In this document: piece by piece, positions 7,202 through 38,969 of the stretch
Numbering within the stretch: position 1 is the first letter of the stretch
How the letters are laid out: every line of letters starts with the position of its first letter
Assembly (NCBI GenBank): GCA_050012475.1
Contig: JBEKHC010000015.1
Coordinates: 1-63,232 of the forward strand
Source of the DNA: Candidatus Velthaea sp.
GTDB lineage: Bacteria > Vulcanimicrobiota > Vulcanimicrobiia > Vulcanimicrobiales > Vulcanimicrobiaceae
Length of the DNA stretch: 63,232 nucleotides
Direction of reading: 5' to 3'
Translations under genes and position numbers: made by a program
Notes under the pieces: generated by a model
Told to the model about the DNA's origin: nothing
Seen by the model: only the letters and a program-made list of their open reading frames with translations
Databases searched by the model: none

Positions 7202-7467
7202 CCGCCGTGGACCAGCGCCGGGATGCGCGCAAGCACGTCGGCGAACAACCGCGCGCACAGGTTCATGCCGAACCCCCCGAACAGTGCGAGCGCCGCGCCG
7301 ACCGCGATGACTTTGGGCAGCAGCGTGAGGGTTTGTTCCTGCACCTGGGTCGCCGCCTGGACGATCGCGACCGCCGCGCCGACGATTGTCGCCAACCCCA
7401 AGATCGGCAGGACCAGGATCGCGGTGACGATCAGCGCTTCGCGCAGCAGGATTGCGAATTCGGCCAC
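7198..7467 (-). CDS. fliQ: export apparatus protein FliQ
   Basis: QAATQVQEQTLTLLPK motif; 89 aa. Confidence 0.95.
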   Translation of the reverse strand: MAEFAILLREALIVTAILVLPILGLATIVGAAVAIVQAATQVQEQTLTLLPKVIAVGAALALFGGFGMNLCARLFADVLARIPALVHGG

Positions 7468-14916: not shown

Positions 14917-14947
14917 GGCCCGAGCATAGCGCCGGGCAGTCACGAAT

Positions 14948-16501
14948 TTACGACGGTGTTGTTGCCGTGCGAAGACGCCCGTCGTCGAAGCTCGTGCTCT
15001 TTTCGAGATACAACGCCCCATCGGCAAGATCGAACGTAACGATGAAATTGCGCAGGATGCCCAAGCCGACGTTCCCGGCATCGATGCGATCGGCGAAGGC
15101 GCCCTTCTCGGCGGTCACGACGTCGGTGACTTGATGGTACAGCGGCACGTCGCCCAGCAAGAGTTCGTCCAGCGATGAACGATACGTCGGCGCGGCTCCG
15201 CCGATACCGTAATTGGAGACGTTCGAACGGCTGAACGGGACGATGCCGGGATGGGCGGCGATGAACGGCCGATACAGGAGCAATTCGCCGCTGTTCCCGG
15301 TGTCGACGATGAACGGCGCGTCGATCGCGCCGTCCAAACGAAATACCGCTTCGACCAAACCGCGGTCGCCGTCGAGCGCCACCCGGACGCCGCGCGGCAC
15401 GAACGAACCGGGAACGCCGAAGCGCATCGCATGCCGCGCGAAGTCGATCTCGACGAGCGCCGAAGCGAAAAACGGCATGCCCAAGATGCCGTCGAGCTGC
15501 GAGCTCCCGCCCAGCGAACCGCGCAAGTCGATCGAACTGGCGACCAGATCGTCGAGATGGGCGCTGCCGATGTCGATGCGCGGGAGCCGGAGCACGTGTA
15601 AACCGCCCGTTCGGCTGGCGCCGCGAACCTCGAACGCACCGAGTTCGGCGAGCCCGGCTTCGCGCGCCACGCGTGAATCCAAGAGCACGCTCTGCGCGCC
15701 GGTATCGAGCAAGAACTCATAGGTTTTCGCGCCGATCGCGACCGCGCATGCGAGGTGCGCGTTGCGTTCGACGAGCGGAACGGTCTGCACCGTATCGGCA
15801 TGAATCGTCCGGCCGTGCAGCGGCGCAAAGACGTCGGCGGAGACCGGCTTATCGACGTCGAGCGCGGTCGTTTGCTGTTCCACGTCGAATTGCCGCTCGC
15901 CGTCGGAAGTGACCATTTTGAACGGGAAGCGGTGCCCGCCGACCTCGTGCCAATCGGAGAAATCGATCGTGGTCGGGCCGTCACCGTCGAGATATTCGAC
16001 GCGCAGCGGCAAACCGGTCTGGGTATCGATCCACAGCGTTTCGGGTTCGCCGCCTTCGGCCCGCACTTCCAGCCGCCACGCGCGCACGCCGGCCAGCGAG
16101 CCATAGCCCAAAAACGTCGACCGTTCCGGCGCGGCGACGAAATCGCCGCTGTCGACGAAATCCGCGGTCAGCGCGCGCCGGCGCAGGAAGCCGGTGAGTT
16201 CGCGCACGTTGCCGTCCGCGGTGCGCAAATACAGGCGCTTGTCCAGGCGCAGCGTCGTTTCCGAGCGCGGGCCCAAGCGTTCATCCTCGCGTTCGTTCGC
16301 GCCCGCGCGCCATGAATGAAACTCGCCGCTCAACCCGGCGCCCGTTACCGTGCCCGACGACTCGAACGACTTCAGCCCGGCATCGCCCATCGCGCGCGCG
16401 TAGCTCGCCAGAATCTCCGTTACCGGCGGCGGCACAGCGGCCGGGTGCGCCGCGGCGGGCAGCGCCGCGGCGAACGTCAGCGCAGCAGCAAACGCCCGCA
16501 G
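14948..16501 (-). CDS. secreted protein with two retropepsin-like aspartyl protease domains (start uncertain, possibly CTG)
   Basis: Signal-peptide-like RAFAAALTFAAALPAAA; LLDTGA and IVDTGN catalytic motifs; DGILG and GNVGL..L..F motifs. Confidence 0.85.
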   Translation of the reverse strand: MRAFAAALTFAAALPAAAHPAAVPPPVTEILASYARAMGDAGLKSFESSGTVTGAGLSGEFHSWRAGANEREDERLGPRSETTLRLDKRLYLRTADGNVRELTGFLRRRALTADFVDSGDFVAAPERSTFLGYGSLAGVRAWRLEVRAEGGEPETLWIDTQTGLPLRVEYLDGDGPTTIDFSDWHEVGGHRFPFKMVTSDGERQFDVEQQTTALDVDKPVSADVFAPLHGRTIHADTVQTVPLVERNAHLACAVAIGAKTYEFLLDTGAQSVLLDSRVAREAGLAELGAFEVRGASRTGGLHVLRLPRIDIGSAHLDDLVASSIDLRGSLGGSSQLDGILGMPFFASALVEIDFARHAMRFGVPGSFVPRGVRVALDGDRGLVEAVFRLDGAIDAPFIVDTGNSGELLLYRPFIAAHPGIVPFSRSNVSNYGIGGAAPTYRSSLDELLLGDVPLYHQVTDVVTAEKGAFADRIDAGNVGLGILRNFIVTFDLADGALYLEKSTSFDDGRLRTATTPS

Positions 16502-16505
16502 CGCT

Positions 16506-17090
16506 TTACTGAACGTTGCGGTATTTGGCGTACGAGCCCAGGACGTTTTGGACGTAGTTTTGCGTCTCAGCATAAGGCGGGACGTCGCCGTACTTCTCCA
16601 CGGCCCCGGGTCCCGCATTGTACGCCGCGACTGCCAAGCGAACGTCGCCGTTGAAGCGGTCGAGCAAGCCCTTGAGATAGCGCGTTCCGCCGGCCACGTT
16701 CTGCGCCGGGTCGTATGAATTGCGCACGCCGACCGCCTGTGCCGTCGACGGCATGAGCTGCATGAGCCCGGCTGCCCCGACTTTTGAGGTCGCGTTGGCG
16801 TCGAACCCCGATTCGTTGGCAATGATCGCTTTGACCAGTGACGGATCGACCTGCCAGGTCGTCGAGTTCTGGTTCACCAGCGCGTCGATCTGCTCGGGCG
16901 GAACGGGCGCGGGTGCGAGGGATGCGGCTTGCGCGGGCGCGGCGGGCAGCGCTCCTTGCGCTGCGGTTCCCAGCGCCGAGGCCAGGGCGTTCTGAAACGC
17001 AGGGCTCCGGCCGGTGTCGTCGCTCGCGGGCACTCCGGTGATCTCGGCAATCCGGCTTTGGACCGCCGAAATATCAGCGAGAATATCCAT
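16506..17090 (-). CDS. lytic transglycosylase (SLT domain), flagellum-associated type
   Basis: AII..ESGFD..A.S..GA.GLMQLMP.TA, AAYNAGPG, PPY.ETQNYV; no Sec signal; overlaps the fliI end. Confidence 0.95.
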   Translation of the reverse strand: MDILADISAVQSRIAEITGVPASDDTGRSPAFQNALASALGTAAQGALPAAPAQAASLAPAPVPPEQIDALVNQNSTTWQVDPSLVKAIIANESGFDANATSKVGAAGLMQLMPSTAQAVGVRNSYDPAQNVAGGTRYLKGLLDRFNGDVRLAVAAYNAGPGAVEKYGDVPPYAETQNYVQNVLGSYAKYRNVQ

Positions 17091-18333
17091 CGCTTAGCGT
17101 ATCGGCCAACATACCCAGGTCCCTGAGCGTCGCGTCCGGATCGGCCGGGGAGCGTTGGCGAAGAAAGCCGGCGATCGCCGCTTCGGCGGCGACGGCCCGG
17201 CGTACGGCAGGATCGCCGGCCCCGGGATCGAGCCCGAAGCCGCGGGCTTCGCGCGTTTCGTCGAGCACCGCGACCGCGTGCCGAAGCACATGTGCCGCCG
17301 CGAGATGCTCGGGCGAGACGACATCGGCGATCGTCCGGCTGGTCGAGGCCGGAATATCGATGGCCGGAAACCAGCCCTGCCGCGCGAGACGGTCGTTGAG
17401 TGCGATGTGGCCGTCCAGCACCGAACGGCAAGCATCGCTGACCGGATCGCGCTCGTCGGCCCCGTCGGTGAGGACGGTGGCAACGAGCGTGATCGAACCG
17501 CGGCCGAACTGTCCCGCACGCTCCAGCAGCTGCGTGAGCAAACTAAAAACGCTGGGCGGATATCCGCCGCGGCCGACCGGCTCGCCCGCAGCAACGCCGA
17601 CGTCGCGGGCCGCAGCGGCGACGCGCGCCAAGCTGTCGAGCACCAGCAAGACGTCCAAACCGCGCCGGCGCAGCGCCTCAGCTTGCGCGAACGCAACTTC
17701 GGCCGCGCGCAGCCGCTCGGCCGCGCTGCGATCGCTCGTCGCACAGACGATCGTCGTTCGCGCGTCGAGCCGCGCGAGCCAGCGTTCCGCTTCGCGGCCC
17801 CGTTCGCCCACCAGACCGATCACGGTCACGTCGGCCGACGACCCGTCGACGATGGTCTCGAGCAGCGTCGACTTGCCGCAGCCCGGACTGCCGAAAATGC
17901 CGATCCGCGCGCCGACGCCGAAGGCCAACGGTCCGTCGACGGCGCGAACGCCGGTCCGGAAACGGCGCCGAATCGGCCCGCGATCCCCCGGCGCCGCAGC
18001 ACTCGCCGCGCCTCCGCGCCGCCCGCGCGGCGCCGGGCGACCGTCGAGCGGAGCACCCAAGGCATCCAGACCGCGGCCGAGACACGCCGTGCCCAGGCAC
18101 AAATCGAGCACCGCCGGGTCCGCCTCGACCCGGTCGCCGACGGCGAGGCCGTCGACCCCGGCAAACGGCGCCAAGCTGACCCGCGCGCCGTCGAGGGCGC
18201 TGACCCGGGCCGGCACGATCCGGCCGCCGCGGGTCGCGATGCGGGCACCGGCCCCGATGCACAACGCCGGCATGCGCGCATCGACGAGCCCGCCCCGAAT
18301 CGCCACGATCGTTCCAACCGGCGTCCCGATCAC
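17074..18333 (-). CDS. fliI: export ATPase FliI (SctN family)
   Basis: Walker A GSPGCGKSTL, GERGRE, LLVLDSL.R, GYPPSVF, LDGHI.L; GTGA overlap with the fliH stop. Confidence 0.95.
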   Translation of the reverse strand: MIGTPVGTIVAIRGGLVDARMPALCIGAGARIATRGGRIVPARVSALDGARVSLAPFAGVDGLAVGDRVEADPAVLDLCLGTACLGRGLDALGAPLDGRPAPRGRRGGAASAAAPGDRGPIRRRFRTGVRAVDGPLAFGVGARIGIFGSPGCGKSTLLETIVDGSSADVTVIGLVGERGREAERWLARLDARTTIVCATSDRSAAERLRAAEVAFAQAEALRRRGLDVLLVLDSLARVAAAARDVGVAAGEPVGRGGYPPSVFSLLTQLLERAGQFGRGSITLVATVLTDGADERDPVSDACRSVLDGHIALNDRLARQGWFPAIDIPASTSRTIADVVSPEHLAAAHVLRHAVAVLDETREARGFGLDPGAGDPAVRRAVAAEAAIAGFLRQRSPADPDATLRDLGMLADTLSDGYSR

Positions 18334-18872
18334 GACGCGCTCTCCAGCACCTGCGCCAACCGAACCGCCAGACGCGCATCGATATCGCCGTTGCGGCAAA
18401 CCAGCACGGCGTCGCCGGGCTGCAGTTCGGGATCGCTGACGACGGGCAAATCGCAGGCAACGAGCGCGTCGGCCGGGCAGACGCGCAGCGACAGCGGCTC
18501 ATCCGCTCGGCGTTCGGCAATGATCTGCCGGGCAAGCGGCTCGATATCGGGCGGCGCGAGACGAAGTTCCCGGCCCAACACGGCGGCGGCGAAATCACGC
18601 ACGAGTTCGACCGTCAACGCCGCAAACGCATCGGCGAGTGCGGCACGAAACAGGCGCGCTTCGCGGATCGCCGCGCCGGACTCGCTGGGCCCGGCCGGCG
18701 CGCGCGCGGCCGGCGGCGCGATCGCCGGGGCCGGCGAGGACGTCTCCCGCACCGCCGGCTGCGGAGCATCGCGTTCGGGCAGCTGCGCTCGAACCGGGAG
18801 CGTTTCCGACGCGGGTGGCCGCGAGCGGATGATCTCGGCCAGCGAGACGAACCGCGCGTCACCCGCGGGCAC
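18330..18872 (-). CDS. fliH: shortened FliH/SctL-like ATPase regulator
   Basis: GAGGAG RBS and GTG start; C-terminal LRVCP.D....VVSDPEL.PGD.VL...NG.IDARL..RL FliH pattern. Confidence 0.75.
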   Translation of the reverse strand: MPAGDARFVSLAEIIRSRPPASETLPVRAQLPERDAPQPAVRETSSPAPAIAPPAARAPAGPSESGAAIREARLFRAALADAFAALTVELVRDFAAAVLGRELRLAPPDIEPLARQIIAERRADEPLSLRVCPADALVACDLPVVSDPELQPGDAVLVCRNGDIDARLAVRLAQVLESAS

Positions 18873-20343
18873 GGAGCAGCTCCTCGGCATCCGGAACGAG
18901 CGGCGAGGCGGCGCGGGCGAGTCGCCGGACGATTGCCGCGCGTTCGTCGGGCGGATACAGTTCGAGCACCGCGGTCGCGGTGGCAGCCGGCAACGCCGAG
19001 ATGATCGCTGCGGCGATATGCGGCGGTTCGCCCGCCAGCGCGCCGCGAACCCGGGTGGGCGGAATGCCCGCGACTTCACGCGAGGTCGCCCGGACGTTGG
19101 CCGAATCGATCAGCTTCACCGCGAGCGCATAAGCCGGCCGTGCACCGAACCAGCCCGCAAACGCCAGTGACAGCGCAACGATCGCTTGCGGCACGACGCC
19201 GGCGAAGGCGCCGACGAGCGCCCAAGCCGGCACGAGTGGCCCGCGCACCGAAGCCGGCGTTGCGAAACGCACCGCTTCGACGTGCAAGACGTCGCCGCGC
19301 GTCGGATCGAGCCCCGCGGCCGCTTCTGCCAGCGAGCGGATTTTCGCCAAGTCCAGGCCTTTGGCTTCGTCGACGAAGACGGCAACGGAGCGGCGTCCGG
19401 TGGCGCCCGGCAAAGCGACGAGCGTTTCGTCGTGGGTGTCGCTGCCGCGTTCCTCGACGCTGTTGGCCTTGGTGTACTTCTTGAGGTTCGAGTTGTAGCG
19501 CTCATCGCTGGCCGAGCGCGAAAGCGTGCCGCCCAAGGCGGTGCGGCGCACGTCGTGAACGTCGCGGCGCTCGGCGATCAGGTCGCGGTGTACGCGCACG
19601 ATCGTGACATTCGGCCCGAACGCGGCATCGAGCGCCGACTGCAACGCGGCCGCGATGCCGTCGTCGTCGCCGTCGCCGCCGGCTTCGGCGCCAGAACCGA
19701 GCTCGGGCGCCAGTCCACGGTCGTCGAGCACGGTGACGTGCGCCGCATCGAGACCCGGCACGCCGCCGGCGACGAACGCGCGGATCCCCGCGAGCGTTCG
19801 CGCGTTCATGCGCGCCCCGTTGGCGAGCGTTATCCGCACGCTTGCGGACGCGTCGTGCGAGGCTTCGTCGGCGTACATGCCGGTGCGGGCCGGCGCGATG
19901 ATGACGCGGGCATCGGCGACGCCGTCGAGTCCGCGCAACCCGAGCGCCAGATCGGACGCCAATCCGTCGCGTGTCTGGGCCTCGAGCACCGACTGCGGCG
20001 TCAGTGCGCCGGCGTGCGCAAACAGTTCGGCCGAGGTCGCCAAATGCGCGTGCGGCACGCCCGCGATGGACAGCCGCAGCAGGATGTCGCTGCGTTTGGC
20101 CGGTGCGACGCGGACGTTGTCGGCGCCGGGCGCATACGCCACGTTCCAGGCCGCGAGCCGCGTCTGCACTTCGCCGACCTGGTCGGGACTGAGCGGAGCG
20201 GCGAACAGCGCGATCCGGTCGTCGCGCGTCAGGGCGAAACTCGCCGCCACCAGCCCGACGGCCGCGAGGACGAACGCGCCGTACAAGGCTTTGGTTTTCA
20301 GCGGCGCGGCCAGCACGCGAGCCAACATCGGAGTGACGTTCAT
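18859..20343 (-). CDS. fliF: MS-ring protein FliF fused to a FliG middle-domain-like C-terminus
   Basis: TM1, RBM motifs (L...L.GLDGVADARV.I, ASASV.I.L, VAGGVPGL...HVTVLDDRG), TM2, then L.GEPPHIAAAIISAL....A.AVL..YP..ERA.IV.RLA (similar to the FliG EHPQ domain). Confidence 0.85.
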   Translation of the reverse strand: MNVTPMLARVLAAPLKTKALYGAFVLAAVGLVAASFALTRDDRIALFAAPLSPDQVGEVQTRLAAWNVAYAPGADNVRVAPAKRSDILLRLSIAGVPHAHLATSAELFAHAGALTPQSVLEAQTRDGLASDLALGLRGLDGVADARVIIAPARTGMYADEASHDASASVRITLANGARMNARTLAGIRAFVAGGVPGLDAAHVTVLDDRGLAPELGSGAEAGGDGDDDGIAAALQSALDAAFGPNVTIVRVHRDLIAERRDVHDVRRTALGGTLSRSASDERYNSNLKKYTKANSVEERGSDTHDETLVALPGATGRRSVAVFVDEAKGLDLAKIRSLAEAAAGLDPTRGDVLHVEAVRFATPASVRGPLVPAWALVGAFAGVVPQAIVALSLAFAGWFGARPAYALAVKLIDSANVRATSREVAGIPPTRVRGALAGEPPHIAAAIISALPAATATAVLELYPPDERAAIVRRLARAASPLVPDAEELLRARG

Positions 20344-20346
20344 CGC

Positions 20347-20619
20347 TTAGATCTGCATGCCGAGCAGCGTGTTGAGCGCTTGAGCGGCGCGCTGTGCGCC
20401 GCTCGCCGCAACGGCCAGCGCGATATCAGCCTGGGCCCGGCTGACGACCATCTCTTGCAACCCGCCATGGCCGCGGGCGAACGCCGCTTCCGCGCCGTCG
20501 GCGGTTGCCAGCGCTTGGCCGGCCGCATCGACGAGCCGTTCGAATTGCCTGGCAGCGTCGTTCGATTCGCCGGCCGGCGAGCTTGGGCCGCGATCGGGAA
20601 CGATCGGTTCGATCCGCAT
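20347..20619 (-). CDS. fliE: hook-basal body protein FliE
   Basis: F..LV..A....A....F.RG...LQEMVV...QADIAL...LLGMQI C-terminus. Confidence 0.85.
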   Translation of the reverse strand: MRIEPIVPDRGPSSPAGESNDAARQFERLVDAAGQALATADGAEAAFARGHGGLQEMVVSRAQADIALAVAASGAQRAAQALNTLLGMQI

Positions 20620-20999
20620 CAGCCGCGCCCGACGTCGATGGTGCGTTCGGCCAGCCGCTTCGCGGTATCGAAAATCGAAGCATTTTGTTCGTACGCCCGC
20701 TGCGCGTCGAGGACCGCGATCATCTCGGTGAGCGCATCGCCCGAGCCCGGCTCAGAGCGCACGCCGACCACGGCCGATCCGGCTGCCGATGCGGCGAGAT
20801 CGTCCGGATCCGGATCCATTACCTCGTCGGCCGCCGGGTCCGCGGCCGTTCGGAATTGCGCGACCAGCCGCGCGTAGGGGTGACTCGGGGTCGACGCTTG
20901 AGCGGCCGCGACGTTGCGCGCCGCGATGTCCAGGACCGAGCGCTGCGCGCTCATTGCGGACGCGGCCGAAGCCAGCAGATCCATCTCGCTGAAGGCCAT
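20619..20999 (-). CDS. flgC: basal-body rod protein FlgC (divergent)
   Basis: ASAMSAQR..LDI.A.NVA.A...PY.R; D.LTEMI.VLDAQRAYEQN..IFD.AK.L...TIDVG. Confidence 0.85.
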   Translation of the reverse strand: MAFSEMDLLASAASAMSAQRSVLDIAARNVAAAQASTPSHPYARLVAQFRTAADPAADEVMDPDPDDLAASAAGSAVVGVRSEPGSGDALTEMIAVLDAQRAYEQNASIFDTAKRLAERTIDVGRG

Positions 21000-21000
21000 G

Positions 21001-21192
21001 TTATTTCGCGACCGTGCGGAGTTCGCCCAAACGCGCGTGCACCGCGTTGAGGAGCGCTTCGGTAAAGATTGCGGCCTGGGCGATGCGCGCCATGCGCGGT
21101 TCGTCGACACCGTTGCCGCGCGCCGAGTGAGTAAGCGTCGTTCGGGCTGCCAACGCTGCCGAGCCGGTGGAGTTAACCGTTGCGAGTTCCAT
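21001..21192 (-). CDS. flgB: truncated FlgB-like protein (C-terminal helix only, 63 aa)
   Basis: GGAG RBS; RGNGVD..RMA..A.A.IF..ALL......L..L..V resembles the FlgB C-terminus; lies immediately before flgC. Confidence 0.6.
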   Translation of the reverse strand: MELATVNSTGSAALAARTTLTHSARGNGVDEPRMARIAQAAIFTEALLNAVHARLGELRTVAK

Positions 21193-29769: not shown

Positions 29770-31074
29770 GTGCGGATCGTGCGCCGCGCCATTCTCCACG
29801 CGTTCGCCGCCGTCGCCGCGCTTCGTCTGGTGCTGCCGGCGCCGGCCGTTGCGGTATCGACGAGTCCGAGCGGCTTGACGGCACAAGTCGATTACAACGC
29901 CGTGGCCCTGGCCTGGTCGGCGCTGAGCGGCGCTCAGAGTTATAACGTCTATCGCGGCTCGTCGAGCGGGGGCGAGACGCTCATGGCAAGCGGGATAACG
30001 TTGCCGGCAAATCTCACCAATCCGGTCTACTACGATCTCACGGCTGCCAACGGCTCGACGTACTACTACGAAGTTTCCGCGGTGAGCGGCGGCCTCGAAG
30101 GCGCGCGGTCAACGGAAGTGCTGGCGGTGCTGCCGAGTTTCACCGGTTACGCCGCCCTCGCATATCAACTCATCGGCGCGCCCAGTGGGATTCCGCCGTA
30201 TGCGCCGGATACCGCATACGTCAGCGCCGGAAATGAAACGTCGCTCGCGAATCCCGTCAACACGAGCGCAGCGATCAATAATCCGGCGCCTGCCGGCGTC
30301 TACAAAGACGAGCACAACGGTCACGGATTCGCCTATACCTTGGGCGGGCTGCAGCCGAACATGCCGTACATCGTGCGGCTGCACGAGTCCGAAAATTATT
30401 GGGGTGTGTCGACCACCTGCGCGAACAACAACAACTGCACGGGTTCCCGCGTTTTCACCGTCACGATCAACGGCGCGGCAGTGTTGCCGCGCTTCGATAT
30501 TTTCGCCGCTGCGGGAGGCTCGGACATCGCCATCGGCCGGGTCTTCAACGCGACGGCGAACAGCTCCGGAACCATCTACCTCGGATTCTGCTCGGCGAAC
30601 ACGCTCACCACGCCGACGACGTGCAGTCCGCCGAGCAATGAAGCCGACCAGGGCAAGATCGACGCGATTCAAGTCTTCGGCCAGTCGCCGCAAATAACGC
30701 TGACGTTGACAGCATCGCCGGCGACCGCGCTTCCCGGCACCGACATCACGTACGCCGAAACGTTCGTGAACGTCGGACTCATGCCCGCGGTCAATACGGC
30801 GATCACGATCCCCGTCCCGAGCAACACCTGTTTCAAGCTCGGTTCGGCAACGCCCGTCTCCGGTTCGAGCGGACTGAGCGCGACGATCGACTACTCGAAC
30901 AGCACCAGCGGCACACCGTCCTACGGTTACGTTCCCGTCAGCGGCAGCTGCGGCACGGCGAGCACCGGCTACGACCCGACCGTGACCTTCGTTCGCTGGA
31001 CGCTGAGCGGCTCGCTGAGTGCGACGCCGCCCAAGAACAGCGGAGCCATCGGCTTTTCGTCACACGTTCGCTAA
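29770..31074 (+). CDS. secreted Fn3 + malectin-like + C-terminal DUF11 protein (putative adhesin)
   Basis: Signal peptide; Fn3 (PSGLTA..V.L.W..YNVYRG..YYY.VSAV); malectin (Y.VRLH..E.YW...G.RVF.V.ING..VL..FDIFAAAG); DUF11 (PGTDITY...FVN.G...VRW). Confidence 0.8.
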   Translation: MRIVRRAILHAFAAVAALRLVLPAPAVAVSTSPSGLTAQVDYNAVALAWSALSGAQSYNVYRGSSSGGETLMASGITLPANLTNPVYYDLTAANGSTYYYEVSAVSGGLEGARSTEVLAVLPSFTGYAALAYQLIGAPSGIPPYAPDTAYVSAGNETSLANPVNTSAAINNPAPAGVYKDEHNGHGFAYTLGGLQPNMPYIVRLHESENYWGVSTTCANNNNCTGSRVFTVTINGAAVLPRFDIFAAAGGSDIAIGRVFNATANSSGTIYLGFCSANTLTTPTTCSPPSNEADQGKIDAIQVFGQSPQITLTLTASPATALPGTDITYAETFVNVGLMPAVNTAITIPVPSNTCFKLGSATPVSGSSGLSATIDYSNSTSGTPSYGYVPVSGSCGTASTGYDPTVTFVRWTLSGSLSATPPKNSGAIGFSSHVR

Positions 31075-31151
31075 CCTCAACCTGATGCCGGGCGCGTCCG
31101 GCCCGGCGAAGCCGAACGCCACCGCGGCTTGCGGCGCAGCCGCAAACGCCA

Positions 31152-31184
31152 TGGATTCGCGGCGCGTTCAGCGCCGCGAATCCA
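31152..31184. terminator. stem-loop, probable terminator between convergent genes
   Basis: 14-bp perfect stem TGGATTCGCGGCGC-GTTCA-GCGCCGCGAATCCA. Confidence 0.6.
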
Positions 31185-31185
31185 G

Positions 31186-34100
31186 TTAGTGCTCAGCGCC
31201 CCAGCCGAAGATGCGGTCGATCGTGGTGGTCAACGTCACGTACACGCCTTTGCGCGTCGGTGCGGCGGCCAGCGTCGAATCGGCGGTCGTGCCGAAGTTG
31301 TAGCCCAGGGCCGCGCGCAGCGTGTTGCCCGGCAGCGCGCCGACCTCGACCGCCGTCGAATGCAAGCCGCCGCCGGCCGCCCGGGCCAGGACCTCGCGCG
31401 TCTCGATTCCGACGTCGAGTCGCGGTCCGATCCGTTGGCGCGCGCCGACACCGATCAGCGCCGTGCCGACGGCATAGTTGGAGTCGCCGTCGGTTTTGTA
31501 GGCGTAGCGTCCGGTCAGTTCGAGGCGTTCGGCGGGCCGATACACGCCGTCGAGCGACAAGACACCGCTTTGCGCGCCGGCCACGTCCGCGTTGCCCGAA
31601 GCGCGCTGATACCCGGCCAAGAGCGCACCGCGATCGGACAGCGAGGGACGCCAAGCCAAGGCGACGCGTGCATCCGTGGTGGCGTTGCCGAGCGCGCGCG
31701 AACCGTCGTACGCGCCCAAGAGCGACACATCGCCCACGAGTTTTCCCGCCGCTCCGAGCGACCAGGTCGCGCCGCCGCCGTCACCGGTCCGGTCTTGCAG
31801 CGAACCAGTGGCCTTGAGCCGCCCGAACGCGTCGCCGTAGCCCAGCGACAGCCCGTACACCGCGAAACCGCTGGTGTCCGAGCCGTAAGCGACGCCGCGT
31901 TGCACGAACGCGTCGCCTTTGAGCTGCTGCGATAGAACCAAACGCTCGCGAACGCCGATCGCCGCATTGACGTCGGTGCCGTTTCCGGTGCCCGACACCA
32001 AGTATTCGGAATCGACGGACGTGTTCGCGTTGACTTTCTGTTCGATCCCGAATTCGGTTGCATGCGTCGCCGAACCGACGGCCGCCAGATTACCGGTCGA
32101 ATTCGCCAAGCTCAGCGGCGAGTCGGTCCACAATTCGCGCGCATAGATCCGGCCGCGGCCGCCCAGATCCCAGCTTGCCTGCGCCGTCGTTTGCGCCGGC
32201 TGCGTTGCATCGAATCCGCCCACGTTTTGATCGCGCTCCGCCGACAGACTCAGATTTTTCGTTGCCTTCCAATCCGCACCCAGAACCGCTTGCATGACGC
32301 TCGCCTGCGCGTCGGCGTTCGCCGCGCCCGCGGAGCCGGGAACCGCTGCGGCGGTCGTCTCGCTGCCGTGCAGTGCGAGCCCCGCGTGAACCGCGAGCCG
32401 GGCGTTGAGTTTTTCGTGCAGCGTTGCGATGAGATTCGAGCGCATCGACGTTTCATCGACACTAGCGGTCGCCGCGTAATTTTCCCGATCGTAGGCCAGC
32501 GACAGATCGCCGTTTTGGCCGCCGAGGGCGCGCACCAGCGCGACGTGATAGTCGGTGAGTCCCGGGGTGGCGAGATCGCCGAACGGGTTGCCGTAGCCCG
32601 CGGTCGTGGCGTCATAGCCGAAGGAGAATTTGTACGGGCCGCCCGCCGTCGCGCCGGCGAATCGCAGTGCATCGCCGCCGCCATCGCCGACGCCGGTGAG
32701 CGTCCCCGCGCCGATGCCCGGAACGGTGCCGGTGCTCGCTGCATGCGAGACCGACCACGATCCGCCCGGCAGCCGGCCGGCGACGTTTTCGTTGAGTAAG
32801 GCGAAGTTCGCGCTGCCGGTCGAATCGTTGAGGTAGCCCAGACCCAAGCGCAGATCGTCGAAATTCCCCAGCGGCGCATCGAGCCGCGCGCCGGTCGTTT
32901 TCGCATCTCCGCCCAGCGCGGAATACTCGTACGTCACCAAGACCTGCTGCGGATTGAATTGCGCGTCGTACGGCAACGGGATGTCGATGAAGCGAATGAT
33001 GCCCGACGTGTAGTCGATCGTGTAGTCGATGGTGTTCTGCAAAATCGTTTGCCGCAACACGATCCCGGTGTGGCGATCGATGCTGGCCAGCGTCACGGTT
33101 TCGCTGCCGACGACCAGATTGTCGTGGTCGAGCAGATTCAACGTCGCAAGACCGCTGGGGTTGATCAATTCGCGGCCGTAGCCGACCTGGTTGGACGCGC
33201 TGAAGGCAGTTGCCGAGAGCGCCGCTGAACCGCCGCTGATGCGGGCCCCGTCGACTTGCATCGCAACCGCGCCCGCAGCCCCTTGCGGTCCGGTGGTGGC
33301 CTCGAATTCGCCCCACATTGCGTTGGCATGGCCGTCGTCGACCCGCGCGTACAGCCGGTCTTGCGTGAGCGCATCGTTGCGGCGAATGCTCGCATCGCCG
33401 TAGGTGGCGTAGGGCCGGTCGTTGGGATCGGCGTTGAGCGTCCCGGTCGAGGTCGTCGGCGCCAGCGAACCGGCGGTGTCATAACCGATCGTGCCCACCG
33501 CGTTTCCGCTCAACGCGCCCGTTCCGAACAGCGCGACGCGGCCCAGGCGCGAGTTGGTCCCGTCCGGCGCGGTCGGATCGGTTGCCGGATCGCCCGGCAC
33601 CGCACCGACTCCGACGGTCGCGAGACCGGTCACGATCGGCCGCCGGGCGTAGGCCATGACGTCGAGAACGACGCGCGTCGAAAGCGCGGCGACGTCGGCG
33701 TCGATCCGGATGCGCCCGGGATTGACGCCCGGCACCACCGGGATCGTGGCCGTCGAACCGGCCGCCAACGTCACCGCGACCGAACGCAAATTTGCCGCAT
33801 CGGTCGACGCAGTCGCGTCGGTCGAGACGACAATCGTGCCGCCGCTGATCCCCGCCGGCGCGAACGTCGCATCGCCGGCGGCGATCGTGGCTTTGAGTGT
33901 GGCACCGGGGGCGGCTGGATGCCCCCAGCGGTCGAGCACGGCGATACGCACCGCGCACGGCGTCCGGCCGTCGGCGCGCGGCGCAGAGCAGGCCGCACCG
34001 TGAATGACGGCCGGCGCGCCCGGACCCCACACCCGTTCGGTGACGCTGGGGCCGCGCAAGCCGTCCGCACCCAGCGGCGTGAGCACGACGATGTTTTCTC

Positions 34101-34434
34101 CCGGCGCGAGAACCACGCCGTAGTATGTGTAGCGGACGGTTCCGTCGGTTTGCTCGGCGCGCCGTCCCAGCCGCGACGGCGGTATGACCTTTGCATTGAC
34201 CGCGAGTTCCACGCCCGCGCCGGCAACGGTCGCCACCTCGAACGATGTCGCCGGGGCGTTCACGATGCCGCCGTCGTCGGGCGAGATCGCCTTCGCCATG
34301 AGCCCTTCACGGGCCGAATACGTCAGATGCGAAAGATCCCCGTTCGAGGTTGATTGCGCCAGCCCCGGGCCGCACAGGCTCGTCGTGACCAGCGCGAAGA
34401 CCGCGGCTACCGAGAGCGCCTTCATGGCTGACAT
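31186..34434 (-). CDS. large secreted protein with N-terminal Ig-like domains and a predicted C-terminal outer-membrane beta-barrel
   Basis: Signal peptide; about 1080 aa; YGD.S.R, LY.RVD, DY.IDY.SG.I.F motifs; alternating amphipathic strands to the C-terminus (LGYNF..KGVYVTLT). Confidence 0.7.
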   Translation of the reverse strand: MSAMKALSVAAVFALVTTSLCGPGLAQSTSNGDLSHLTYSAREGLMAKAISPDDGGIVNAPATSFEVATVAGAGVELAVNAKVIPPSRLGRRAEQTDGTVRYTYYGVVLAPGENIVVLTPLGADGLRGPSVTERVWGPGAPAVIHGAACSAPRADGRTPCAVRIAVLDRWGHPAAPGATLKATIAAGDATFAPAGISGGTIVVSTDATASTDAANLRSVAVTLAAGSTATIPVVPGVNPGRIRIDADVAALSTRVVLDVMAYARRPIVTGLATVGVGAVPGDPATDPTAPDGTNSRLGRVALFGTGALSGNAVGTIGYDTAGSLAPTTSTGTLNADPNDRPYATYGDASIRRNDALTQDRLYARVDDGHANAMWGEFEATTGPQGAAGAVAMQVDGARISGGSAALSATAFSASNQVGYGRELINPSGLATLNLLDHDNLVVGSETVTLASIDRHTGIVLRQTILQNTIDYTIDYTSGIIRFIDIPLPYDAQFNPQQVLVTYEYSALGGDAKTTGARLDAPLGNFDDLRLGLGYLNDSTGSANFALLNENVAGRLPGGSWSVSHAASTGTVPGIGAGTLTGVGDGGGDALRFAGATAGGPYKFSFGYDATTAGYGNPFGDLATPGLTDYHVALVRALGGQNGDLSLAYDRENYAATASVDETSMRSNLIATLHEKLNARLAVHAGLALHGSETTAAAVPGSAGAANADAQASVMQAVLGADWKATKNLSLSAERDQNVGGFDATQPAQTTAQASWDLGGRGRIYARELWTDSPLSLANSTGNLAAVGSATHATEFGIEQKVNANTSVDSEYLVSGTGNGTDVNAAIGVRERLVLSQQLKGDAFVQRGVAYGSDTSGFAVYGLSLGYGDAFGRLKATGSLQDRTGDGGGATWSLGAAGKLVGDVSLLGAYDGSRALGNATTDARVALAWRPSLSDRGALLAGYQRASGNADVAGAQSGVLSLDGVYRPAERLELTGRYAYKTDGDSNYAVGTALIGVGARQRIGPRLDVGIETREVLARAAGGGLHSTAVEVGALPGNTLRAALGYNFGTTADSTLAAAPTRKGVYVTLTTTIDRIFGWGAEH

Positions 34435-34435
34435 C

Positions 34436-36613
34436 TCAATCCGCCCCCTCATTGACCGCAAAGCTGACGTCGTGCATCAGGCCGGCGTCGAAGATCCCGT
34501 GCACCAGCTGCACGCTGCTGCGCGAATCGTTGACCGCGTGGCCGTGATACGGATGCATGCCGGCCGGCAGCGTGACCGGATCGAGGTGCAGCACGTGCTG
34601 GCCCGGCCGAACCGCCGGAAACGAGAACCGGCCGTCGCCATCGGTCTGCACCGACTCGCCGTCCTCGAGATAAATGCGCACGCCGGGCAGCCCCAAATCG
34701 CCGGGCACGAAGTGCCCGCTATGCGCATGGTCCGCAAAGACGCGTCCGGTGAGGATGCTGCGCGAGCTCAGTGGGCCGCCCACGACGGCGACATCCACCC
34801 CCGCGTCGGTCGTCAGCGCTGCGCCCAGAACCATGACGGACAGATGCGCGCGGGTGTTGATCGTCGTGCTTTCACTGACGCCGGGCAGCACGACGGTATC
34901 GAATGCCAACGTATGGCGGCCGGCAAGATCTTTGACCGGCCACGACAAGCTGCGGGCACTCGCCGCCGGTTCGATCGCGACCGTGTCCAAGCGCGCGGTG
35001 CCGTGGGCGTACGCGACGCCGGCGGGCAGCGCGATCGTGAGTTGAGCGGCGCCGGTCAACGGCTTGTTGCCGGGGCCGAAATCGACGCTGTAGCCAAGCC
35101 GGTCGCCGGCCGACGCGACGGTTCGATCGACCGCGATCGAGAGCGACAGCGCCTGCGGTGAAAAAAGCGGAACGTTGCCGAAAAAGCCGCTGACGCCGGT
35201 AACGCTGACCGGCGCCGACGTCAGGCCGAAACCGCCGACGCTGGCCAGCGGCAAATCGTCGAGCGCGCGCAGCGTCGTGGTTAGCGCGCCGTCGGCAGCC
35301 GTGCCGACCGTCAGTCGAATCTTTCGGTTGAGATAGTCCGGCGCGGTGACGTAGAGATCGTAATCCGTCGAGCGGCTCGACGCCGCAGCCAGCGCGAACC
35401 CGAACGTGCCGCTCGACGCGGTCGAAAACGGATTGACGTTGGACGCGTTGAGCGCCGGCCCGACGGTGGGAAGTTTCGGCGCCAAGCCGGTGTTGGGATC
35501 GATCAGCGAAACCACCGCGCCTGCGATCGGATGTGCCGAGCCGCCCAGCGCGTCGTACACGGTGTCCATTACGCCGACGAAAACAATCGCCGGGACCGCC
35601 GCAATTTTCGCCACCGACTCCGCCGAGATGACCGCCGGATTGGCGATCGTCGTGCCGATCGGGACCGAACTGCTCGTCGTGGCTTGAAAACCGATCGTTA
35701 CGTCGACGCCGGGATCCAGCCGCGGGATCGTCGCGCTAACCGTATTGCCGGCGATCGTGACGCGCGCGCCGACGGAGGCGATCATGCGTGCCGTTCGATG
35801 GTCGACGCTCTGCAGGGTGAGGCTGCCGGCGATCGGGTGCAGATCGGGGGGAATCTGATCCACGACGACGACACCCAGCGCCGGCGCGTCGCCGAGATTG
35901 GTGAACGGCAAATTGAAGTTGAGCGTGCTGCCGGGCTGGGCTTGGGCGACCGGAGCGCCGTTGACGAGGCCGCTGACGGCCAACGCCGCGGATCCGTTCG
36001 AACCGCCGGATGCCGCCGGCGTGTTGGGCGGCGCGACGCCCGAGATTTGCGGGCCGTGCGCGACGAAGACCCAGGCCTTGCCGCTATCGGACTGCGCGCC
36101 GTTGGCCGCGGCCGCGGTCGTCTTCGCCGTCAGTGAAACGGCGATGCTGCTGCCGATCGGCGCATTCGCGGTCGCCACCGCGACCGTCACTGACAGCGAC
36201 GCCCCGGGCGGCACGGCCGGCGATACCGTCGAACCGACGGTCGCCGCCACCGCTGCCGCATTCGCCGGCGCGAAGGCGACGTTTTGGACGCTCCCAGCAC
36301 TGACGCCGGCGGCCGTGATCACGTACGCGTCGCTGATGTTCGACTGGTTCGTGATGATGAAGGTTTTGGTCGCGACGGTTCCAGCCGTCACCGCATCGGC
36401 GGTCGTGTCGGCGGCGGCCTGTTTGGGCATGACCATCGCCGACGAGATCGCCGCGACCGAAACGGCCGCGCTGCTCGAAGCCGCGCCATAGGTGTGGTTG
36501 GCGTTGTCTTGATACGTGCCGCTGCCCGAATTGCTGACGACGACCGCAGCGACCGTTGCTGCGCCGACAGCGAGCGCGACTCCCCAGCCAATGACCGACT
36601 CCGAGAGTGCCAC
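34436..36613 (-). CDS. DUF11-repeat surface protein with C-terminal SdrD-B-like domain
   Basis: Signal peptide; DUF11 motifs (PG.TL.F.L..TN.GD.PA.GVVVVD.IP; GD.L.Y.V...LPAG.AY..G.A); GRVF.D...G....G..GLPGVRIYLEDG..V.TD.DGRFSF. Confidence 0.8.
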   Translation of the reverse strand: MALSESVIGWGVALAVGAATVAAVVVSNSGSGTYQDNANHTYGAASSSAAVSVAAISSAMVMPKQAAADTTADAVTAGTVATKTFIITNQSNISDAYVITAAGVSAGSVQNVAFAPANAAAVAATVGSTVSPAVPPGASLSVTVAVATANAPIGSSIAVSLTAKTTAAAANGAQSDSGKAWVFVAHGPQISGVAPPNTPAASGGSNGSAALAVSGLVNGAPVAQAQPGSTLNFNLPFTNLGDAPALGVVVVDQIPPDLHPIAGSLTLQSVDHRTARMIASVGARVTIAGNTVSATIPRLDPGVDVTIGFQATTSSSVPIGTTIANPAVISAESVAKIAAVPAIVFVGVMDTVYDALGGSAHPIAGAVVSLIDPNTGLAPKLPTVGPALNASNVNPFSTASSGTFGFALAAASSRSTDYDLYVTAPDYLNRKIRLTVGTAADGALTTTLRALDDLPLASVGGFGLTSAPVSVTGVSGFFGNVPLFSPQALSLSIAVDRTVASAGDRLGYSVDFGPGNKPLTGAAQLTIALPAGVAYAHGTARLDTVAIEPAASARSLSWPVKDLAGRHTLAFDTVVLPGVSESTTINTRAHLSVMVLGAALTTDAGVDVAVVGGPLSSRSILTGRVFADHAHSGHFVPGDLGLPGVRIYLEDGESVQTDGDGRFSFPAVRPGQHVLHLDPVTLPAGMHPYHGHAVNDSRSSVQLVHGIFDAGLMHDVSFAVNEGAD

Positions 36614-36614
36614 G

Positions 36615-38969
36615 TCAGTTCACGGTCACCGCGAAAGTGATCGTCCCCTGACAACCGGTGCCGTTCGCGACGCCGTAGGGCACCAGTTGAAATGCGGCGC
36701 CGCCGACGACGGCGGTGAATTTCGTGAGGCCGGTCTGAAACGTGCCGGCCGGCGTTCCAGCGCTCGAACCGCTGAAAAACGCGAACACCGTGTTGGCGGT
36801 GGTATCGACCGGCGGCGCGGTCGGACCGCTCGAATACGTCGCCCAATTGTTTCCCAGGCTGGTCCCGTCGGGCTTGAGCGCCGCGCTGGTTCCGTCGGCG
36901 GTGATCAGCAGCGAGCCCGGCTTCGTCATGACGCCGGCGAAGGAGACCGCCGCAGCCGAAGAGCGATCGTAATTGCTGCTGCCGCCCACGATGTTGCGGT
37001 AGTCGATGGTGTAGGTGATGGTGCCGCCGGGGCAGACCGTACCGGCCGTCGGGCTGACGCCGGCGGGACAATTCGGGGTCGTCGCCGCGGTCGTCGTGAT
37101 CGCGACGAAGCCGGCGTACAACAGATGATTGGTCGAATTCTTGATCGTGCCGTCGCCAACGGACGTCGCGACGACCGTTCCGGTTGCGTGCGAGAGATAC
37201 GCTACGCCGCTGGGAGCCGCGTAGACGGCCCAATAGTTGAGCGTCGCACCCGAAGCCAGCGGAACGAGCGTAGCCGTCGAACTCTGCCCCGCCGCGGCGC
37301 CGCCGAGCGCGCCGGCGGGTGCGTTTCCGGCATCGGCTTGCAACTGCACCGTCCAGCCCGGCGGCGCGGTCGCGACGATGGTGTACGCGTCGGCCTTGTT
37401 GCCGGTGTTGGCCAGCGTGTTTTCGATCTTGATGTTGCTGACGGCCGTCTTCGTCGCCGTCGCGGTCGTCGGCGAGTACGTCGGGCTGACGTCGGTCGTG
37501 GTGTAGATGTCGCCGGTCGAAACGAACGATACTGCGGTGAAGTCGTGATTGTCGTCGTTGCTCGAACCGTCGAACGAGCCGCTGGCCGCAGCGCTGCCGA
37601 ACGGACCGTTCTTGACCGCGTATTGAGCGAGTGACTGGTTCGAGGTTAACTGCGACGCGCCGCTGGGGCTGGTGATCGCGGTCGTGTTGTCGATCCCCGC
37701 GCCCGCCGTCGTGAGCGCCGCCGTAGCGAGGAGCGAGTCAGTCAACGAACTGCGGGTGATTCCGGGCGCGACCACGTGCTCGGGCATCGCGTTGTCGCCG
37801 ATGACGCTGTTGGCCAGCGTCGTTACCGCACCGCTGTTTGCCGATCCGTTGCCGGCCGGCTGCGCGACGGTGAAAGATAGCGCGAGCGCCGGATTCGGCA
37901 CGCTTCCGGCGCTCGAAGCCGGACCGGCAAGCGGACAAAACTCGACGCCGCTCATCGCGCCGCCGTTGATCGTGCAGGTTCCGCCGGAGACGAACGCCCC
38001 GATGAACTGCGCGCCCGCGGGAACGCTTGCGGAGGTTGCCGTCCAGCCGGTGCTGCCGTTCGGCGACGTGGTGTAGTATAACGTCGCGGCCGCACCCGCT
38101 GCGAAACCATAGGTTCCATTCGGCGTCGCGGTGGCGCTGCCCACGACCGTCAACGGCGATCCGTTGAACTGGGGAATCTTCACCGAGATGAAAACGCCGG
38201 GGACCGTCGTGCCGAGCAGTGCTTTGACGGCGAGGCTGTCTCTCGCGCCCCACGTCGATGAGCCGTCGACCGCGCCGGCCGTGTACGTGATCGCACCGCT
38301 GGCCGGATCTTGGCTGGTCGAGATCGCGACATCGAGCCGCACGTCGGCCATGACGGTATCGGTTTCGGGCGTCGCCGTCGCCGGACTCGACGTCTGTGCC
38401 GGCGCGCTGCCGGCGGCGGCGTACGCAATCGTCCCGGAGAGGTTGGTCACGACCGTGCCCGATGCCGCGCCGCCCGTTGCCGGCAAAGCGTACACGACGT
38501 TTACGGCAATCGATGCCCCGGCCGGCACCGGGACGGCGGACAACGCCGCGTTGAGCGCCGCAACATTCGCGTACGCGGTCGCATCGTACGCGTAGCTGAC
38601 CGTCGGCGAACCGCTGTACGTGCCGCCCGTGACGCCCGTGCCGCTGCAGGCGGTGAGCGTGACGATGCCGTTGGCGTTGCCCGTATTCTGGATCGTGAAC
38701 GTGTCGCTGACCGTTTGTCCCGGGGCGACCGTTTTGCCCGAACCGGCGGAGATGGTCAGTGCGGGCGCATTTTGCACGACGACGCTGACGGTGTTCGAGG
38801 TCGTTCCGTACGTTTGCGCGCTCGCATCCTCGTACGTCGCACTCGAGGTATTCGAGATCACGGTGTTCGCAGCCGTACCGGCACACGCCGCACGCGCCCC
38901 GCTCACCAGCGCCCAACCAACGACGAACGCGGCGCCGAAACGCGCGGGCAACCGCCGGCTGCGCGTCAT
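36615..38969 (-). CDS. DUF11/Ig-like multi-domain secreted protein (putative pilin shaft)
   Basis: Signal peptide, mature N-terminus GTAANTVISNTSSATY...SNTVSVVV, repeated F/YTI.NTGN..D.Y domains, C-terminus GTITFAVTVN. Confidence 0.8.
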   Translation of the reverse strand: MTRSRRLPARFGAAFVVGWALVSGARAACAGTAANTVISNTSSATYEDASAQTYGTTSNTVSVVVQNAPALTISAGSGKTVAPGQTVSDTFTIQNTGNANGIVTLTACSGTGVTGGTYSGSPTVSYAYDATAYANVAALNAALSAVPVPAGASIAVNVVYALPATGGAASGTVVTNLSGTIAYAAAGSAPAQTSSPATATPETDTVMADVRLDVAISTSQDPASGAITYTAGAVDGSSTWGARDSLAVKALLGTTVPGVFISVKIPQFNGSPLTVVGSATATPNGTYGFAAGAAATLYYTTSPNGSTGWTATSASVPAGAQFIGAFVSGGTCTINGGAMSGVEFCPLAGPASSAGSVPNPALALSFTVAQPAGNGSANSGAVTTLANSVIGDNAMPEHVVAPGITRSSLTDSLLATAALTTAGAGIDNTTAITSPSGASQLTSNQSLAQYAVKNGPFGSAAASGSFDGSSNDDNHDFTAVSFVSTGDIYTTTDVSPTYSPTTATATKTAVSNIKIENTLANTGNKADAYTIVATAPPGWTVQLQADAGNAPAGALGGAAAGQSSTATLVPLASGATLNYWAVYAAPSGVAYLSHATGTVVATSVGDGTIKNSTNHLLYAGFVAITTTAATTPNCPAGVSPTAGTVCPGGTITYTIDYRNIVGGSSNYDRSSAAAVSFAGVMTKPGSLLITADGTSAALKPDGTSLGNNWATYSSGPTAPPVDTTANTVFAFFSGSSAGTPAGTFQTGLTKFTAVVGGAAFQLVPYGVANGTGCQGTITFAVTVN

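Follow-up and report, generated by a model that had tools for sequence, protein, structure and literature searches.

Can a bacterial surface fiber be built from subunits that carry, at their two ends, complementary pieces of one immunoglobulin (Ig)-like domain? The question is raised by a cluster of four genes in Candidatus Velthaea sp. (assembly GCA_050012475.1), on contig JBEKHC010000015.1, of which positions 1 to 63,232 (63,232 nucleotides, the whole stretch that was analyzed, called here the window) were studied. A previous reading of this DNA, made without database searches (hereafter the sequence-only reading), had proposed that the cluster encodes the tip, shaft, base and outer-membrane barrel of a pilus assembled by donor-strand complementation, possibly without a chaperone. 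The four genes, in window coordinates, are:

36615..38969, minus strand: P4, 784 amino acids, a chain of Ig-like domains and candidate shaft subunit, with a donor hairpin and an acceptor end domain
34436..36613, minus strand: P3, 725 amino acids, candidate base subunit (donor hairpin only, with a stalk of complete domains)
31186..34434, minus strand: P2, 1082 amino acids, predicted outer-membrane protein with a signal peptide, two Ig-like domains and a giant beta-barrel
29770..31074, plus strand: P1, 434 amino acids, Fn3 and malectin domains followed by a P0-type end domain, candidate alternative cap or tip lectin

P4, P3 and P2 are tightly packed on the minus strand, the start codon of P3 lying one base past the stop of P4 and P2 starting directly after the stop of P3, and P1 is convergent with P2. 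Altogether, our results point towards a P4-P3-P2 operon that encodes the parts of a surface fiber, joined as a split CLIPPER (DUF11) domain is completed in trans and rooted at the predicted P2 barrel, a reading to which we assign a probability of about 0.6.

The donor part of this split domain would be a hairpin located behind the signal peptides of P4 and P3:

38889..38969, minus strand: signal peptide of P4, residues 1-27, read from the sequence, with 'ARA' before the likely, putative cleavage site
38775..38879, minus strand: candidate N-terminal donor hairpin of P4, residues 31-65, 'TAANTVISNTSSATYEDASAQTYGTTSNTVSVVV', with strands at residues 37-47 and 53-64 in the model
36455..36544, minus strand: candidate N-terminal donor hairpin of P3, residues 24-53, 'VVVSNSGSGTYQDNANHTYGAASSSAAVSV', assigned by homology to the P4 hairpin

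After its signal peptide P4 begins with 'GTAANTVISNTSSATYEDASAQTYGTTSNTVSVVV' and it ends with 'GTITFAVTVN*'; P3 begins with '...AAVVVSNSGSGTYQDNANHTYGAASSSAAVSV' and contains '...VDVTIGFQATTSSSVPIGTTIANPAVISAESVAKIAAVPAIVFVGV'. All the motif strings on which the sequence-only reading was built are present in the translations of P1, P3 and P4, each at its coordinates. No part of P4 is better conserved than the hairpin, with N40, Y46, D48, S58 and N59 kept in 32 of the 32 full-length sequences compared (the window, 30 related loci and a P4 paralogue encoded on another contig of the same genome, C68); the homologue search had returned 24 P4 homologues. Within an alignment of 23 P3 sequences (A2), N28 and S46 of the hairpin are invariant, and the hairpin profiles of P3 and P4 match each other over 39 columns (hhalign, probability 98.5%, E 1.8e-15). 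Both hairpins also align, weakly (E about 0.006; 0.0065 for P4), with the last two strands of a complete CLIPPER domain of P3; domain 2 of that protein served as the complete-domain reference in the alignments of hairpins and end domains. A search of the 5.36-Mb genome with a hidden Markov model (HMM) of the hairpin retrieved exactly three proteins, P3, P4 and the C68 paralogue of P4, and in each of them the hairpin lies directly behind the signal peptide. In P4 it is joined to the first strand of domain 1 by a conserved four-residue link, 'QNAP'.

The acceptor part would be the last domain of P4:

36618..37112, minus strand: candidate C-terminal acceptor domain of P4, residues 620-784, ending in 'GTITFAVTVN' and holding the interface residues found in docking

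When residues 28-250 of P4 were folded together with residues 520-784 of P4, scores of 0.73, 0.75 and 0.82 (median 0.75) were obtained, and the best of three controls scored 0.00. The runs shared at least 94% of their contacts, and the predicted local distance difference test (pLDDT) of the partner was at least 75; of 157 solved complexes 116 pass the mark applied to such docking, whereas only 2 of 215 mismatched pairs do. The predicted interface places hairpin residues 29-70 against residues 620-713, 762 and 783-784. The proposal that the N-terminal hairpin completes a C-terminal domain is thus borne out in the models, for two fragments of one protein. Furthermore, the chains of P4, P1 and P0, a small protein encoded upstream of P4 in most related loci, all stop at an equivalent strand ('..TFxVTVK', '..YEVRVK', '..GFSSHVR').

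DUF11 has been renamed CLIPPER, and a crystal structure is reported with an intramolecular Lys-Asn isopeptide bond from the first to the penultimate strand and a catalytic Asp nearby (10.1101/2025.04.25.650565). In the P4 family the corresponding residues are found at both ends of the chain. The penultimate-strand Asn is on the hairpin in 32 of 32 sequences; acceptor position 626, in the first strand, is Lys in 30 of 32 (Thr in the window, Ala in locus L040); and acceptor position 691 is acidic, Asp or Glu, in 31 of 32 (Ala in the window), followed by D/N692 and G693. With one part of the CLIPPER domain at each chain end, a bond, if formed, would link two molecules, and the conserved residues suggest that most relatives could seal the junction by an autocatalytic Lys-Asn isopeptide bond upon docking. 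The acceptor of the window P4 probably cannot form such a bond; with Thr626 and Ala691, its own junctions would therefore be non-covalent. The C68 paralogue keeps both Lys and Glu ('LVKS', 'ITEDG') and could form it. Complete domains of this family are found in the stalk of P3:

35579..35998, minus strand: complete CLIPPER/DUF11 domain 1 of P3, residues 206-345 (Pfam DUF11 at 222-331, TIGR01451 at 223-267)
34760..35164, minus strand: complete CLIPPER-like domain 2 of P3, residues 484-618 (A2 consensus 'KxVDR..GDRLxYT..VVDTLPxG..TLxNxVxV')

P3 belongs to the CLIPPER/DUF11 family by a TIGR01451 match of 35.5 bits (cut-off 24), and P4, P1 and P0 are below the cut-off of DUF11/TIGR01451 or have no match. 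In the triad of P3 domain 1, which lies within one chain, D252 and N325 are invariant across A2 and K215 is nearly so (90% or more). The window P3 has Gly at 215 ('AVSGLVNG') where its relatives have Lys, and its first domain is therefore probably without the isopeptide bond.

The link of this chain to the cell would be provided by the C-terminal part of P3 and by P2:

34514..34756, minus strand: SdrD_B/CarboxypepD_reg-like domain of P3, residues 620-700 (Pfam matches under cut-off), followed by the conserved tail 'LVHGxFDxGLMxDVxFA'
33655..34296, minus strand: N-terminal Ig-like domains of P2 (invasin/intimin-type), residues 47-260, assigned from fold matches
31219..33636, minus strand: predicted barrel region of P2, residues 267-1072, about 45 strands, of which 32 of at least 8 residues lie within 496-1072 (DSSP of the model)

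In three proteobacterial loci, L075 (labeled Methylophilaceae) and L076 and L079 (a gammaproteobacterial metagenome-assembled genome), P3 and P2 form a single open reading frame (ORF) of 1897-1981 amino acids (about 1900-1990) with the hairpin at its start, and both P0 and a P4-like gene lie upstream of it. The fused homologues match SdrD_B and CarboxypepD_reg over cut-off and DUF11 with 37.8-49.4 bits. Among the 148 newly listed proteins of the best 150 of 3213 P2-family matches, 60 have at least 1500 amino acids with the P2 match at the C-terminal side, and a strict regular expression for the hairpin matched 14 of these 60 long fused relatives. With P3 a donor only and fused to P2 in these three loci, the earlier placement of the base beside the barrel is supported. 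Between the stalk and the first Ig-like domain of the barrel protein, L075 (5109-11054) and L076 (12996-18689) contain a low-complexity linker of roughly 150-200 residues; such a length is enough to cross a barrel lumen.

For P2 itself, the AlphaFold2 model (pLDDT 71.2, predicted template modeling score (pTM) 0.56) and the fold matches agree with the prediction of an outer-membrane barrel. Its Ig-like part is similar to invasin (1cwv, Z 13.1, root-mean-square deviation 1.2 over 92 residues, model residues 142-261) and to intimin D0-D1 (Z 11.9) in VIA-align. Foldseek matched P2 to LptD (9fz5_A, E 3.4e-8, TM-scores 0.18 and 0.23), MtrB and TonB-dependent receptors, and VIA-align to maltoporin (Z 14.3), OccAB1 (Z 14.1), Deinococcus SlpA (7zgx_A, Z 13.9, 448 residues aligned), PapC (Z 10.1) and SprA (Z 10.0). 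A comparison of the P2 profile with PDB sequences gave 0 matches at E <= 1. The genome carries an Omp85/BamA gene, and the organism is therefore diderm. A look-up of clusters for P2 found unnamed ones plus one 'outer membrane protein' cluster, in which 14% of the members have DUF2490, which we take as a lead only, and a crude scan of P2 for period-2 hydrophobicity was uninformative. A short conserved stretch at residues 462-535 (32830-33051, minus strand; 'NTIDYTIDYTSGIIRFIDIPLPYD..') forms short strands between barrel segments in the model; its match to the type IX translocon SprA (E 0.0023, 15 bits for a cut-off of 200) was treated as noise.

The gene order P4-P3-P2 is conserved. In a synteny survey, as had been suggested in the sequence-only reading, one genome per species was scanned and 80 related loci were returned, 70 with a P3 homologue and 68 with a P2 homologue; the order P4-P3-P2 is kept on one strand in 66 of the 68 loci that have both, the exceptions (L046 and L073) having a P4-like C-terminal match downstream of P2. 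Every one of the 10 loci without P3 ends 0-693 nucleotides past the P4 match. None of the ORFs flanking the cassette in the window recurs in at least 3 of 33 other loci, and the only conserved extra gene is P0; of the 76 loci having at least 700 nucleotides upstream, 73 carry it no farther than 1.5 kb upstream of P4. Sampling of 121 genomes of the phylum showed the P2 family in 24 (18 of the 90 good-quality ones), and a library of 1.84 billion cluster representatives contains 3213 members at E <= 0.001, 2475 at E <= 1e-10 and 1348 at E <= 1e-30. The named matches are all 'hypothetical protein', and the homologues carry the labels Vulcanimicrobiaceae or Eremiobacterota.

P0 is a secreted single-domain protein of about 150 amino acids when mature, without a hairpin. 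Its family aligns with CLIPPER (hhalign probability 95%, E 2e-8) and has neither the Lys nor the Asp. The same type of domain closes P1:

30682..31071, plus strand: candidate C-terminal acceptor-only domain of P1, residues about 305-434, ending in 'GAIGFSSHVR' (P0-family HMM, independent E 1.6e-4)

P1 matches Pfam Malectin over cut-off (2.7e-12) and fn3 just under it (2.9e-5), and TIGR01451 weakly at residues 314-361 (0.0026). The P0 family and the C-termini of P1 type align to the final residue of both (hhalign probability 95.8%, E 8e-9), and one other protein of similar length with a P1-type end domain was found. P1 has no hairpin and its last domain falls in the acceptor-only P0 family, which is consistent with the tip role proposed for it before; P1 is thus a plausible alternative, lectin-bearing cap, as judged from P0 homology and adjacency. 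The genome holds further candidates. On C68 there is a second, partial locus (14657-21167, minus strand), without P3 or P2:

C68 20682-21167, minus strand: P0, the one of this genome, directly upstream of the P4 paralogue
C68 18529-20802, minus strand: P4 paralogue, 32% identical to P4
C68 17580-18530, minus strand: ORF of 317 amino acids
C68 14657-17629, minus strand: ORF of 991 amino acids with parallel beta-helix-like repeats and a P0-type end domain
C90 6005-9835, plus strand: repeat protein of 1277 amino acids, ending in a P0/P1-type domain

The overlapping 317- and 991-residue ORFs may be one gene with a frameshift, or the second may have a later start. Because it has neither P3 nor P2, the C68 locus would depend on the base and barrel of the window. 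A fragment of a P0/P1-type domain is present on C162 (2690-2932), and the C90 protein and the C162 fragment look like further interchangeable caps. The sequence-only reading mentions neither the conserved P0 cap nor the partial C68 locus nor the splitting of the isopeptide triad.

These elements can be arranged into a model of assembly. All parts would be exported by Sec to the periplasm, where the barrel assembly machinery (BAM) would insert P2 into the outer membrane, and the hairpin at the mature N-terminus of P4 or P3 would then insert into the strand-deficient last domain of its partner. A cap domain of P0 type, here carried by P1 or by products of other loci in this genome, would accept the hairpin of P4, and the end domain of P4 would accept that of another P4 or of P3, with P4 present in one or more copies; the predicted P4 chain fits a long fiber and a short, defined stalk. 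As P3 only donates, it would end the chain and stay tied to the giant barrel of P2, through which the chain would pass or in which it would be anchored. The inferred order, cap-P4-P3-P2, and its polarity match those of chaperone-usher pili. A chaperone would presumably not be needed for this assembly. The previously noted lack of a chaperone gene holds for the cassette: the genome has a single match to PF00345 (PapD-like) and a single match to PF00577 (Usher), both on C89, and PF00345 has none in the window or on C68. The C89 genes (5354-7295) are one classical chaperone-usher pair (Usher PF00577, 31.2 bits; PapD_N PF00345, 36.1 bits), unlinked to the DUF11 loci.

Several observations weigh against this model, and it has to be compared with other explanations of the same genes. 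Its support is all prediction and comparative genomics, from genes and models: the gene order, the conserved hairpins behind signal peptides, the conserved chain ends and the P3-P2 fusions in other phyla are read from the sequences, and the docking and the barrel fold are predictions. The docking pass may partly reflect a memory of the modeling program for intact domains of known fold, and even so the two ends of P4 would be complementary halves. Pfam gave no DUF11 match at E <= 10 for the isolated N-termini of P4 and P3 and the end domains of P4 and P1, and hhalign of the P4 end domain with complete CLIPPER domains gave probabilities of 6-12%, with an ambiguous register and no clean truncation, the 'DUF11' label of the chain termini deriving from a pattern and from weak profile alignments. 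These last results would suit a situation without any strand swap, in which P1, P3 and P4 are independent fibrillar adhesins with complete, shorter Ig end domains, the hairpin is an extension of the first domain and P2 is a barrel of porin-like or secretion-related type, with no tie to the others beyond the operon, the more so as DUF11 domains are described to range from 7 to 9 or 10 strands (10.1101/2025.04.25.650565). We consider this situation very unlikely, because the docking contacts, at 0.75 versus 0.00 for the controls, lie in the hairpin, the conserved Lys and acid of the acceptor and Asn of the hairpin make a sensible triad only if they meet, three unrelated types of protein end at the same strand, and hairpins are found at mature N-termini only. 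Docking was also performed with two fragments of the same protein, and trans-complementation and closure of P4 on itself therefore fit it alike. In the latter case, the hairpin of P4 would complete its own C-terminal domain and only the P3 hairpin would be donated in trans, to a P0-type cap, giving a short capped stalk on the barrel and a separate, ring-like P4, with no fiber; a donor-only P3 and an acceptor-only P0 could indeed pair together, and the pTM of the AlphaFold2 monomer model of P4 (0.66, with a pLDDT of 78.9) is fairly high for a multidomain chain of 784 amino acids. In that model, however, confidence is poorest at the hairpin (pLDDT 57-66, in itself a point against the fiber) and at the end domain, the C-terminal domain being the lowest of all, and residues 1-30 are below 50. 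Moreover, the 'QNAP' link from the hairpin into domain 1 resembles that of the beads in a tandem array, so that the geometry favors a linear continuation, and P4, if closed on itself, would lack any connection to the cell, even though strict synteny places it between P0 and P3. We thus regard self-closure as improbable.

A further possibility, to which we give the same low weight as to self-closure, concerns the route rather than the junctions: P3 and P2 would act as an autotransporter in two parts (in one part where they are fused), P3 being threaded out through P2 with its hairpin at the far end, and P4 and the caps would reach the surface in another way and dock there, instead of a chain being put together in the periplasm and extruded tip first, as usher systems do. 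The fused forms, ordered as passenger and then barrel with their linker of roughly 150-200 residues, and the resemblance of the N-terminal domains of P2 to those of invasin and intimin are in favor of this route. Against it, the cassette encodes nothing else by which P4 could be exported, and the barrel of P2, with more than 30 strands, is far above the 12 of autotransporters and would be wide enough for folded Ig domains; besides, split-domain junctions are common to this route and to the fiber model. Returning to the latter, the description of the barrel is itself weakened because the number of strands and their closure derive from secondary structure and from fold matches whose TM-scores are low (0.18-0.29), and few relatives of P2 have a C-terminal aromatic residue (Phe in 4 of 107 proteins of at least 1000 amino acids); the window P2 ends in '...IFGWGAEH' and the fused L075 homologue in '...KFDENSF'. 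The remaining points against it concern the window copy. Its P3 hairpin is the most divergent of the 23, with 'SS' where 22 of 23 have 'SN', and is preceded (36455-36613, minus strand) by a signal-like N-terminus without a basic residue ('MALSESVIGWGVALAVGAATVAA'). No P0 lies upstream of its P4, a LysE gene being found in that place, and P1 is not a conserved neighbor, being matched in 1 of 80 loci, by its end domain only (L061). Lys and acid are both lacking in the six sequences of the window clade in alignment A1 and both present in the other 14; this joint loss is one clade event and not independent evidence. The divergence of the P3 hairpin and signal, Thr626 and Ala691 of P4 and the missing P0 suggest a derived or relaxing copy in the window.

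Within the known surface systems, the closest likeness is with chaperone-usher pili (FimH-FimG-FimF-FimA(n)-FimI, with the FimC chaperone and the FimD usher), whose incomplete Ig-like subunits carry an N-terminal donor element, with an acceptor-only tip, a donor-only last subunit and a dedicated outer-membrane barrel. The P4-P3-P2 system is similar to them in subunit logic and polarity. However, the donor of P4 and P3 is a two-strand hairpin and not a single strand, the fold is CLIPPER/DUF11 and not pilin, the subunits are multidomain rods of 700-800 amino acids, and no PapD-like chaperone is present in the cassette; P2 is larger and is not a Pfam Usher, its match to PapC (Z 10.1) standing below those to porins and SlpA (Z 14), and in many relatives the P3-type base is fused to the barrel, with a probable covalent lock in most relatives. 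The cassette thus lacks two defining features of a chaperone-usher system, a chaperone encoded with the subunits and an usher of PF00577. A classical autotransporter (type Va) consists of an N-terminal passenger and a C-terminal 12-strand barrel in one chain, whereas the window has two genes, with the same order in fused relatives, and a barrel region of more than 30 strands, which places it outside that type. Type V pili (Bacteroidota FimA/Mfa) derive from lipoprotein precursors, their N-terminal strand is removed by proteolysis and their donor strand is C-terminal; in contrast, no lipobox precedes the Cys of P4, this Cys is not conserved and the donor of P4 is N-terminal, so that P4 does not belong to this class either. 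The large barrels whose structures best match the barrel region of P2, the Deinococcus SlpA complex (7zgx), LptD and MtrB, have no sequence relation to it, and P2 differs from them in its invasin-like N-terminal domains and in being joined genetically, in many relatives physically, to a stalk protein.

The CLIPPER stalks of fibrillar adhesins share the domain family and the types of residue, K, D and N, observed in the P3 alignment and in the P4 family (10.1101/2025.04.25.650565; PMC12617251), but the domain of the P4 family is divided between two chain ends; the text of the CLIPPER paper contains neither 'split' nor 'strand complementation' nor 'outer membrane' (10.1101/2025.04.25.650565). 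The BsaA fibers of Clostridium perfringens, of the TasA family, are reported to form by donor-strand exchange followed by intermolecular isopeptide bonds, an 'exchange and lock' in which an N-terminal element enters the sheet of the next subunit and an autocatalytic isopeptide bond seals it, like the junction proposed for P4 (PMC11580942). They differ in fold family and in coming from a Gram-positive organism; their subunits have a single domain, their secretion is associated with a type IV pilus, and an outer-membrane barrel is absent. A TasA-family fold and a SipW-type signal peptidase in the operon mark fibers of this kind. General Pfam scans of the window proteins turned up no TasA/BsaA-type match, and no comparison with TasA/BsaA profiles was made. 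In the thread filaments of Sulfolobus acidocaldarius, subunits are reported to be linked head to tail by donor-strand complementation with no known chaperone (PMC9715654), and the title of the preprint names isopeptide bonds; these threads are archaeal, have no outer membrane or barrel, and are made of single-domain pilin-like subunits of unrelated sequence. No paper joining DUF11/CLIPPER with donor-strand assembly or with a dedicated barrel was found in a search largely outside subscription journals and supplements. The literature matches to 'DUF11' in one search were to DUF1102.

Were the fiber model correct, the operon would represent a further route to surface fibers in diderms, beside the chaperone-usher, type IV, type V, curli and sortase systems, in which completing a split domain is the sole driving force of assembly and a self-made covalent bond closes the junction in most relatives. 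Many operons now labeled 'hypothetical' would become readable, and the junctions would offer natural, orthogonal protein-ligation pairs. The system would also help to understand how poorly known soil phyla, Eremiobacterota among them, attach to surfaces or polymers, the candidate cap P1 carrying a malectin-type carbohydrate-binding domain. It is tempting to go further and to speculate, at somewhat less than even odds, that these loci define a widespread pilus class of double-membraned bacteria, in which self-crosslinking split-domain subunits, a natural counterpart of SpyTag/SpyCatcher, polymerize without chaperone, sortase or ATP and lock covalently, with the base tied or fused to its own giant barrel, a single-use 'usher'; the window would then hold a derived, non-covalent shaft beside a covalent-competent paralogue, with interchangeable caps that include a lectin.

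Regarding the remaining data on the locus, Foldseek with the P4 model returned generic multi-Ig chains only, and Pfam and NCBIfam scans of P4 and P2 gave no family over cut-off. The neighbors of the locus are housekeeping and transport genes (LysRS, GreA, a PaiB-like gene, a LysE translocator and an amino-acid permease). Among the 20 runs listed as holders of the DNA there is no RNA run. The DNA of 34436-38969 is near-identical in contigs of eight public runs (half or more of the sampled words), labeled as peat or soil metagenomes.

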